From IMG/VR virus record IMGVR_UViG_3300045738_001212, positions 1 to 64,000 of that record: a stretch of DNA of 64,000 nt, one strand, 5' to 3'. The stretch's first letter is position 1, and each line of letters begins with the position of its first letter. Shown piece after piece: positions 26,884-43,569 of the stretch. The stretch is from a virus. The notes under the pieces are model-generated. The model searched no databases. It worked only from the letters and a program-made list of their open reading frames with translations, and was not told where the DNA came from. A program made the position numbers and the translations under genes.

Positions 26884-27448
26884 TTATTCTTCAAGTACAC
26901 TTTCGACCTCATCAAAGTCCAAGAATCCCTCTTCCTTTAGGTAGATCGATATGTTTGCTGCTTTAGCAAAGTCCTTACTGGAATCGTCCTGCCTATTCGG
27001 AAAGACTAGTTCTTTCTTGTAGTAATCGATGATTACGTCTTCTCCATGCACGGTCATTGATAGAAACATTTTCTTCATTACTAAAACTATAGCAGATATC
27101 TGCTTTGAAGTCAAGTATCTATTGACCTTGAACAACTTCTAAAAGTTGCAAATTTTGTCGCTCCAGACTCCTGTTCTCCATGTACCAAAAAACATTTAAA
27201 GCTAAACTCATACCTAGTGCCGCCGACAAGAGGTACAGCGTTGCTGTTTTGCAAAATTCTTTAATTGATCCTAACGGGAAAGCTCCACAGTTCATTTTTT
27301 TAATCCTTTTCTGGGGTTTTGGTGTGATTTTCTGTTTTTTCTTCTTTTTCGGATGCCAATCTCCGTCATGGTACTCGTAGTCACTCGCATCTTCACGAGC
27401 GTTAAGCTGCCATTTGCCATTTACGTAAACCGCTTTGTCTTGCTTCAT
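26884..27448 (-). other. two small hypothetical genes (26884-27135; 27119-27448 with one TM helix)
   Basis: ORF track, co-oriented with phoH. Confidence 0.55.
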
Positions 27449-42056: not shown

Positions 42057-42395
42057 TTAAGCGTCCTCATCGAATCTGTATTTCAAGTCATTGTATAGTA
42101 TGCGCGAAAGTGTATTGCCGAACGCTAATACTTGCGTCTCGGTAAGCTCTGGGAAGTAAGCGTGAGCAGTCTCATGGATGACCGTGTTAAGTATCACTTG
42201 ATTGGAGCGATGAGGGTTTATCAAGATGGTCGTAGGCTCTTTTCCTATCACAGGATAGAAGCAGACACCATCGCAATCCTCTCCCCACCTGCGCTTGTCC
42301 GGCTTCCTGAAGACGAATTCATAGGGAACGCCTTTGCAATTTTTAAATTTTAAATAATTTTTCAATTCCACCCCTAAGCTAAAATAGTCTAACAC
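42057..42395 (-). CDS. small HExxH metallopeptidase-like protein
   Basis: NTVIHETAH. Confidence 0.7.
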   Translation of the reverse strand: MLDYFSLGVELKNYLKFKNCKGVPYEFVFRKPDKRRWGEDCDGVCFYPVIGKEPTTILINPHRSNQVILNTVIHETAHAYFPELTETQVLAFGNTLSRILYNDLKYRFDEDA

Positions 42396-42538
42396 GATAC
42401 AGGATAATCCTGAATAAGTCTAATAAGATAGGATATTCCTAAATAACCCCAAAAAAGACTAAAAGAACACGTCTATATTTTACCATATATTTCGCCTTTT
42501 TGCAAGCATTATTTCAGGCGTTTAGAAAAACTTGGAGC

Positions 42539-42659
42539 AAAGAAAGACCCCCCGCTACAAGAACTTAAGCAGCGGGGGGTCGGGATATCCCCCTGAATCC
42601 CGCTGTGAGGCAGGACTCCAACCAGTTGGGTCAGGAGGTGGTCCGGTGAACCAACTGTA
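42539..42659 (-). ncRNA. candidate small RNA B with anti-SD CACCUCC(U) hairpin and terminator
   Basis: TTAGAA-N17-TATAAT promoter; three hairpins; U-tract. Confidence 0.7.
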
Positions 42660-42695
42660 TAAGTATTATACGATAGGAGGTGTTTTGTTCTAATG

Positions 42696-42760
42696 AAAAA
42701 AGCCCCTGACCGAAGTCAGAGGCAGGTGAGATGAATGTCCTAGACTGGAAGTCTTCGGAG
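42696..42760 (-). ncRNA. candidate small RNA A with unpaired CAUUCAUCUCACCU and UUCG terminator
   Basis: TTAGAA-N17-TATAAT promoter; hairpin, linker, terminator. Confidence 0.7.
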
Positions 42761-42834
42761 CGATATTATAATTTTAAATTAAATTTATTCTAATTTTTTT
42801 TACTGCTTGATAGCAGCGGTGAATGAATTAAAGA

Positions 42835-43189
42835 AGTTGTTGTAATCCTTTTAATTAGTCAGCACACCAGTGATGTTTTAATCCTCTATATTTGGAATCA
42901 ATAAATTTGCTATTTTTTCTCCCTTTCAGACCGTGTTTTAATCCTCTAATACTTAAATGGAGTCATGTTGTTGTAATCCTCTCACCCTATTACTCTCTGT
43001 GTTTTAATCCTCTATATTTGGAGTCAATAAATTTGCTGTTTTTTTATCGGCGTTTGGTTATGTGTTTTAATCCTCTAATACTTAAATTAAATGGCTTTCA
43101 GGGCGATGTTTTAATCCTCACAAAATACATTCCCGAGCTTCATGTGTTTTAATCCTCGTGCTTAAAGCGGCGAATGTTGTAATCCACTA
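42835..43189 (-). repeat. array of nine GAGGATTAMAACA-type repeats downstream of a sigma70 promoter (candidate ncRNA)
   Basis: TTGACT(43223)-N17-TATACT; no long ORF on the transcribed strand; internal ~85-bp duplication. Confidence 0.8.
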
Positions 43190-43314
43190 CAAGAAGTATA
43201 CCACCAGCCTTATTTCGAGTCAAGAAGATTTATGGGGAAAAATTAATTAATATATTTAAACTTTTTAAAATTTGCGGGGGCCAGATTTGTTTTGACTTTG
43301 TATCAGATTTATGA

Positions 43315-43569
43315 TTACCTTTTCATACGTCGATAGTTCTTCGCCCAAATGACATTGCACATTTCAGTTGCAGTTTGATCTATTCTGGTTTCAGGCCAAG
43401 CAGGATTATAGATGTGGAGCATTTCATGAATAAGAGTATTTAAATATTGTTTAGATTTTAATCTGCCATCTATTTCAATTTTATTTTCTCCTACCCACGC
43501 TAAACCTAGAGCCTTCTCCCTACCGAGAGGCCGCTCTACTACTTCAATTTTAGTCTTTCTTCTAGGCAT
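43315..43569 (-). CDS. small HExxH metallopeptidase-like protein, related to 42057-42395
   Basis: NTLIHEMLH; GTGTAAT motif upstream. Confidence 0.75.
   Translation of the reverse strand: MPRRKTKIEVVERPLGREKALGLAWVGENKIEIDGRLKSKQYLNTLIHEMLHIYNPAWPETRIDQTATEMCNVIWAKNYRRMKR

Follow-up and report, generated by a model that had tools for sequence, protein, structure and literature searches.

Why might a phage place two short transcription units without a reading frame among its early genes, and are the RNAs themselves the products that matter? The units in question come from a 158-kb IMG/VR record with a completeness of about 91%; they lie in its first 64,000 nucleotides, a stretch referred to here as the window. 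The phage belongs to a clade of uncultured marine phages, and its rIIA is only distantly related to the rIIA of roseophages MD18 and DSS3_MAL1 and of T4-like phages. The best reading, to be held at about even confidence, is that the units would encode a pair of early, trans-acting sRNAs of the phage, named RNA A and RNA B, which represent new families and act independently of one another. In the window sequence both promoters and both RNAs are on the minus strand, and the elements of the locus, in the order of transcription, are the following.

43315-43569, minus strand: gene for an 84-aa HExxH protein, upstream of the array.
42838-43188, minus strand: repeat array, nine 14-nt repeats just upstream of promoter A.
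42765-42801, minus strand: promoter A, with an A-tract (A8) at 42801-42794, the -35 box TTAGAA at 42793-42788, a 17-nt AT-rich spacer and the -10 box TATAAT at 42770-42765.
About 42695-42761, minus strand: RNA A, ~67 nt, with a 5' hairpin (42759-42738), a single-stranded stretch (42737-42724), a terminator hairpin (42723-42702) and a U-tract (42701-42696).
42665-42693, minus strand: promoter B, with the -35 box TTAGAA at 42693-42688, a 17-nt spacer and the -10 box TATAAT at 42670-42665.
42543-42693, minus strand: the mobile unit, i.e. the RNA B cassette, 151 bp from the -35 box to the end of the terminator.
About 42536-42658, minus strand: RNA B, ~123 nt, with hairpins H1 (42657-42623), H2 (42618-42595) and H3 (42593-42582), a terminator (42581-42546) and a U-rich tail (42545-42536).
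42477-42505, minus strand: next promoter downstream, TTGCAA-17-TG-TAAAAT, which drives a 112-aa HExxH gene at 42395-42057.

The two promoters are the most distinctive feature. Promoter B directly adjoins the U-tract of the RNA A terminator and stands exactly 100 bp downstream of promoter A, in agreement with an earlier note on this DNA, which had reported two TTAGAA-N17-TATAAT promoters at that distance and had called the type unusual. Unusual it is: the window holds two such sites where shuffles predict 0.02, the whole 158-kb genome has only promoters A and B, and the extended, conserved box ATTAGAAYAAA is likewise present in the 158 kb only at these two places. In all related loci examined the TTAGAA promoter type occurs only before RNA A or RNA B, and promoter A is kept in every relative that has RNA A. 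The exact 100-bp spacing is incidental, however, because the distance from A to B is about 106-110 bp in relatives and 100 bp in this genome only. TTAGAA would be the weak -35 box of a sigma70-type promoter whose -10 box is near-perfect. An apparent full-length sigma70-family sigma factor of 317 aa, recognized by eye from region 2-4-like sequence in the translation, is encoded at G000 73524-74477 on the minus strand (the same as L032:1025-1978); the promoters of both RNAs are one candidate for the promoters that this factor might serve. A second CACCTCCT is present within the promoter B spacer, at 42675-42682 on the plus strand (42682-42675 on the minus strand), in this genome only. It is conserved neither in relatives nor in the relocated RNA B cassette described below, and is thus probably there by chance.

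The locus is within the early region of the phage, where protein genes are single-promoter leaderless units. The leaderless form, TTGAC-N17-TAnnnT-N5-8-ATG, has 22 sites genome-wide, which bears out the earlier description of the surrounding early genes as leaderless; these 22 promoter-ATG units were found by pattern, as against 14 of ~208 ORFs in a rough count of the strict leaderless class. As both RNA genes lie among the leaderless early genes and on the same strand, they would probably be transcribed early by the host RNA polymerase. Between 28477 and 50275 of the window, on both strands, many leaderless units begin with ATGAAACCTAC or ATGAGCGAAACCTAC, a common tag placed right behind the start codon; no complementarity to it exists in either of the two RNAs.

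Do the two units encode peptides or RNAs? The leaderless genes of this phage have an ATG at +1; RNA A and RNA B have no ATG at that position, no SD-led start and no credible open reading frame. RNA B carries only a 7-codon UUG frame, which is shifted by a 1-nt insertion in L008 and L023, and across the relatives no conserved open reading frame is found in either RNA on either strand. Both units thus show what is expected of sRNA genes, i.e. a promoter of their own, an intrinsic terminator with a U-tail and no reading frame. The prediction that each promoter heads a short ORF-less RNA with an intrinsic terminator was well founded, with expected lengths of ~67 nt for RNA A and ~123 nt for RNA B and conservation of both in relatives.

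Known families offer no counterpart. With Rfam 15 the window gives no match at the gathering threshold, the region 42300-43300 gives only chance-level matches far below threshold when E is allowed up to 10, and relatives L010, L005 and L031 give nothing on either RNA. No tRNA or tmRNA genes were found. A BLAST search of the locus against 50,697 phage records yields no match, there are no further copies of RNA A or RNA B in the genome, and the RNA B hairpin H1 has no match in 185,579 species genomes; in IMG/VR it matches only the L002 contig, and a 19-mer from the RNA A core finds there two chance matches inside unrelated coding DNA. A resemblance to 5S rRNA (CCACCUGACCC-like) is window-specific, comes without a 5S model match and was rejected. 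RNA A and RNA B can be taken with high confidence to be genes, and they look like two new RNA families, without an Rfam match.

Might the plus strand be the functional one instead? Opposite H1 there is AGGAGG, a perfect SD, together with a GTG, which would start a 15-codon peptide that ends in TTCTAA, the complement of the -35 box, and a 15-aa frame with similar residues is found in eight of ten main-type sequences. The residue similarity, however, follows from the conservation of the promoter hexamers. In addition, L026 has lost the start codon, only 8 aa of the frame are left in L023, no equivalent exists in the second RNA B type, no convincing plus-strand promoter is present, and a terminator scan shows terminators that work only on the minus strand. 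The frame was therefore rejected, and a plus-strand function is extremely improbable. A plus-strand frame opposite RNA A was also set aside, as it is not conserved in relatives.

How widespread is the pair? Related loci were collected by IMG/VR searches with the neighbouring proteins and by DNA pattern searches, which returned the same contigs again; a metagenome scan with the 84-aa protein alignment gave 23 marine loci. About 15 distinct relatives, which come from marine metagenomes and viromes, have the tandem pair together with its promoter type. These are fairly close, with 81-93% identity of the flanking 84-aa protein in most of the marine relatives. The order is kept: array, A-tract with TTAGAA-N17-TA(A/T)(T/A)AT, RNA A, U-tract with TTAGAA-N17-TATAAT, RNA B, next promoter and 112-aa gene. 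The cassettes are absent from the more distant L030, where the 84-aa flanking protein is 60% identical, and probably from L003, where a neighbouring AAA protein is 58% identical and there is one weak match to the RNA B model. The two flanking proteins of 84 and 112 aa are themselves paralogues with a common LNT(L/V)IHE..H.Y.P HExxH segment (BLASTP E = 4e-6); no Pfam family was found for them, and only weak PHROG matches of unknown function.

The closest relative, L002, with about 80% nucleotide identity, is of particular interest. There the RNA A terminator is joined directly to what in the window is the sequence downstream of RNA B, and the 151-bp unit is missing. The L002 contig does have an RNA B cassette, but at a distance of 14.7 kb, at L031:1688-1836. 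This copy has 85% identity to window 42693-42543, retains its promoter and terminator and comes directly behind the homologue of the window gene 27119-27448. The breakpoints are the -35 box and the terminator. The occurrence of the cassette at two places in phages that are ~80% identical implies that RNA B is independent of RNA A and of the array, and on this comparison RNA B is an autonomous, movable promoter-RNA-terminator cassette. Beside the relocated copy, a ~220-bp segment with a leaderless mini-gene unit is inverted (L031:1849-2068 versus window 26899-27118), which is a further sign of cassette-level shuffling.

Movement of this type raises the question of whether the units act at the level of DNA or transcription, with the RNAs as by-products. 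They might be insulating or recombining cassettes similar to the PeSLs of T4-type phages, or strong units that activate an origin close by, marked by the repeat array. The junctions in which a terminator is followed at once by a promoter do resemble PeSLs (PMC2839356), the RNA B indel breakpoints fall at the terminator and promoter edges, and an iteron-like array adjoins. A pure insulator, however, needs no invariant 35-nt H1, no invariant single-stranded core in RNA A and no covarying H2 and H3, and the RNA B sequence is kept when it is moved away from the array. As to an origin, the cumulative GC skew falls steadily over the whole window with no turn near 42-43 kb. Action at the level of DNA or transcription alone seems unlikely.

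The array deserves attention in its own right. Its repeat is AGAGGATTA[A/C]AACA on the minus strand, with an irregular spacing of 30-63 nt and an internal duplication of roughly 126 bp. A TG-extended, sigma70-like promoter precedes it at 43223-43195 on the minus strand, and there is no terminator between it and that of RNA A, so that array transcripts should end at the RNA A terminator. The layout of array plus RNA A is the same in L002 and L005. Could RNA A, RNA B or both be a tracr- or anti-repeat-like partner of these 13-14-nt repeats? In every case RNA A comes after the array on that strand without an intervening terminator, as such a partner might, yet on inspection the pairing of the repeat with RNA A or with RNA B does not exceed 5-7 bp, wobbles included, which is not a tracrRNA-like anti-repeat complementarity, and this pairing is not conserved between RNA A subtypes. 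RNA B, moreover, can lie far from any array. A role as array partner must be regarded as very unlikely.

If the RNAs themselves act, which parts would do so? In the predicted fold of RNA A (z = -3.8), a hairpin at the 5' end is separated by 14 single-stranded nucleotides, ACAUUCAUCUCACC(U), from a 9-bp terminator with a U6 tail. Three subtypes can be distinguished. In the window and L002 a 23-nt stretch around the single-stranded region is identical, the 5' hairpins differ and the terminators show compensatory changes. In the main type the single-stranded AUAUCUCUAUCA is invariant in nine sequences, as is the 5' end ACUUUGUUCUU, and the terminator is variable and covarying. The L005 type carries GGGUAUCAUCUCU. 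AUCUC is the sole core common to all three. RNA A therefore has what is expected of an sRNA, a conserved single-stranded seed between variable structured parts. The earlier note had described RNA A as antisense to an SD plus AUG. This is true of the window stretch, which is complementary to AGGUGAGAUGAAUG, but that stretch is common only to the window and L002; the complement of the family core, AUAUCUCUAUCA or AUCUC(UAUCA), is not an SD plus AUG. The complementarity to AGGUGAGAUGAAUG is accordingly a lineage-specific version and not a family-wide anti-(SD+AUG) property. Pairing between the two RNAs was also considered and rejected on inspection: RNA A AUAUCUCU could form 8 bp, two wobbles among them, with H3 GGGGAUAU of RNA B in main-type sequences, but the window allows just 5 bp, and H3 does not exist in the second RNA B type.

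The predicted fold of RNA B has four hairpins, the last of which is a 13-bp terminator (z = -5.3). A covariance model (R1) built from ten main-type sequences recovers eleven distinct copies with E of 1e-26 or better. In the alignment (A7) there are 33 pairs, 97.8% paired, with 10 pairs changed on both sides; none of 500 column shuffles is as good, and when the partners are slid, pairing falls to 47-62%. The alignment was fitted to the covariance model and so favours the structure somewhat, but an independent MAFFT/RNAalifold run gave the same helices. Covariation is found entirely in H2, H3 and the terminator. The main-type H1, which includes GGACCACCUCCU, is invariant in stem and loop in 11 sequences apart from U-A/U-G switches, and with covariation only elsewhere, H1 stands out as the sequence-specific part of RNA B. 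Thus the conserved part is a whole hairpin in RNA B, as against a single-stranded core in RNA A.

Four relatives (L005, L016, L018 and L020) have a second RNA B type with the same position, size and H1 architecture. Its H1 has an internal loop between an outer stem, in which L016 shows compensatory changes, and an apical stem of 3 bp, and the apical loop is ACCACC; CUG replaces UCCU (ACCACC-CUG). The CCUCC motif is therefore present in the 11 main-type sequences and missing from these four. CCACC is predicted to be 0.9-1.0 unpaired everywhere and is the sole element that is always unpaired across both types, and UCCU is predicted to be unpaired at 0.13-0.17 in the window and about 0.5 in most relatives. 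The weak model match in L003 (L003:4075-4162, 23 bits, rough E about 1e-6) has a terminator preceded by a 6-bp stem whose 20-nt loop contains ACCGGAUCACCU, with the GGAUCACCU of 16S rRNA, and it overlaps possible 25- and 33-codon open reading frames. Its homology to RNA B is uncertain.

The earlier note had drawn attention to a motif in an RNA B hairpin that is close in sequence to the 16S 3' end, here GACCACCUCCU at 42643-42633 within H1, and had built on it a model of general anti-SD decoys, in which both RNAs cover the SD-led starts of host or late mRNAs and leaderless early mRNAs are preferred. How does the model fare? The part CACCUCCU of main-type RNA B is identical to the 16S tail and invariant in the 11 sequences, the 22 leaderless units would provide the messages that escape, and both RNAs have strong-looking promoters and stable terminators. 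In four relatives, however, RNA B is without CCUCC, UCCU is partly paired in predictions, and the anti-(SD+AUG) stretch of RNA A has the narrow distribution noted above. A rough count also gives SD-like upstream sequence for ~117 of ~208 phage ORFs, so that a general SD blocker would hit the phage itself. Furthermore, a loop contact of 5-8 bp would need to out-compete tens of thousands of ribosomes. What stands of the idea that SD occlusion favours leaderless mRNAs is the discrete RNA genes, the invariant 16S-like CACCUCCU of main-type RNA B and the leaderless early genes; the RNA A motif, the second RNA B type, the pairing and the phage's own SDs weaken it. General blocking of ribosome-binding sites by both RNAs is weakly supported, and the full model appears improbable.

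Nor do target searches lend it help. In the 158-kb genome, both strands included, the best duplex with the single-stranded stretch of RNA A reaches -32.7 kcal/mol, as compared with -32.6 and -29.7 for the best shuffles, and the best duplex with the H1 loop of RNA B reaches -30.6 compared with up to -30.0 for shuffles. Target prediction in the phage genome, which had been put forward as a check, thus found no site for either RNA above shuffled controls. A 10-nt perfect match to the RNA A stretch at G000 73763 seemed to be a start site; it is internal to the gene for the 317-aa sigma factor and hence a chance match.

Alternatively, RNA B might be a protein decoy, with H1 as a mimic of the 16S 3' tail (GAYCACC...) that sequesters a factor or nuclease recognizing the tail. 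Candidates would be Era, bS21, IF3, an RNase of 3'-end maturation or an anti-SD-removing toxin. The entire H1, stem and loop, is invariant, as expected of a protein-binding shape, and the piece common to all RNA B types is GAYCACC-like and not CCUCC. The KH domain of Era binds GAUCACCUCC, which also fits such a decoy. MazF-type toxins that remove the anti-SD exist (PMC12274833). On the other hand, the RNA B motif differs from 16S rRNA at one base (C for U), a search for phage-encoded S21 or Hfq found none, and the resemblance, a short one, was spotted post hoc. A decoy of this kind is doubtful. A narrower proposal confined to RNA B would have it imitate the 16S 3' tail and, by occupying SDs or an anti-SD-recognizing factor or nuclease, tilt initiation towards leaderless early mRNAs while spreading as a 151-bp cassette; this is quite improbable.

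Two independently acting early sRNAs therefore remain the preferred reading. In this scheme the clade carries two separate small non-coding RNA genes, each of which would be transcribed from a dedicated sigma70-type promoter, with an A/T-tract upstream, to an intrinsic terminator, to give stable RNAs of ~67 and ~123 nt. RNA A has the look of a classical base-pairing sRNA, with a variable 5' hairpin, a single-stranded stretch of 12-23 nt that is fixed within each subtype and a compensating terminator, and it would act through its single-stranded core. RNA B would act via H1, in which stem and loop are fixed, as opposed to H2, H3 and the terminator, where pairing alone is kept; at its tip H1 has a C-rich loop CCACC, followed by UCCU in the main type, which resembles the 16S rRNA 3' tail. 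The most likely action would be pairing with a small selection of mRNAs, in all likelihood those of the host, at their G-rich ribosome-binding regions, and the two RNAs need not work together. With the H1 stem as invariant as its loop, recognition by a protein or at the DNA level would fit equally well.

Characterized small RNAs from lytic or environmental phages are very few. The locus adds two candidate RNA families, which conservation and covariation support and whose promoter type is confined to them within the genome, in a phage with leaderless early genes. If it is true that the 16S-like H1 acts on translation initiation, this would be a new viral way to separate a phage's own messages from those of its host.

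How do these RNAs compare with known systems? Lambda OOP, DicF and P1/P7 c4 are phage or prophage trans-acting sRNAs. RNA A and RNA B are like them in being short and ORF-less, with a promoter and intrinsic terminator of their own and a conserved exposed stretch between variable hairpins. Phage and prophage trans-acting sRNAs are reviewed in PMC12197685, a 2025 article that mentions neither 16S rRNA nor leaderless mRNA, and a lytic-cycle example is given in bioRxiv 10.1101/2024.10.31.621285; in the case of c4 RNA, loop sequences serve to block a ribosome-binding site (PMC12197685). Unlike the known phage sRNAs, RNA A and RNA B have no sequence or Rfam relation, form two cassettes on one dedicated promoter type and occur in an uncultured marine phage of lytic type with leaderless early genes.

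Among cellular RNAs, RsaE/RoxS and RNAIII of Firmicutes are C-rich-loop sRNAs that pair with SD regions. RNA B similarly has a C-rich motif at a hairpin tip, complementary to G-rich ribosome-binding sites, but it is phage-borne, has one copy of the motif and not several, and carries CCACC(UCCU) rather than UCCC, with CCUCC missing in one subtype. The 16S rRNA 3' tail is GAUCACCUCCUUA, the anti-Shine-Dalgarno. Main-type RNA B GGACCACCUCCU matches GAUCACCUCCU at 10 of 11 bases, the CACCUCCU part being identical, yet the motif lies inside a hairpin and not at a free 3' end, is one base off and is partly paired in predictions, and only GACCACC is left of it in the second subtype. T4 RegB may be set beside the SD-occlusion idea as a functional analogue, being a phage early function that acts on the SD sequences (GGAG) of the phage's own early mRNAs and so shifts translation between gene classes; RegB is a protein endoribonuclease, whereas RNA A and RNA B are putative RNAs.

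The PeSL cassettes of T4-type phages also invite comparison. They consist of a strong sigma70-like promoter with AT-rich sequence upstream and a G/C-rich stem-loop terminator (PMC2839356, PMC4122927), and border modules whose gain, loss or movement sets close relatives apart (PMC2839356). In the examples of PMC2839356 the last part is the SD and start codon of the gene that follows, in most cases an ORFan. The cargo of the RNA A and RNA B units is instead a conserved, structured, ORF-less RNA, and their -35 box is TTAGAA and not the consensus. The association of promoter and stem-loop terminator is the same, in that the RNA A terminator abuts promoter B and the RNA B terminator precedes the next promoter, and so is the behaviour at breakpoints, with the RNA B cassette gone from beside RNA A in L002 and inserted 14.7 kb away. 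A mobile RNA cassette would thus extend the shuffling of promoter-terminator modules from ORFan genes to RNA genes.
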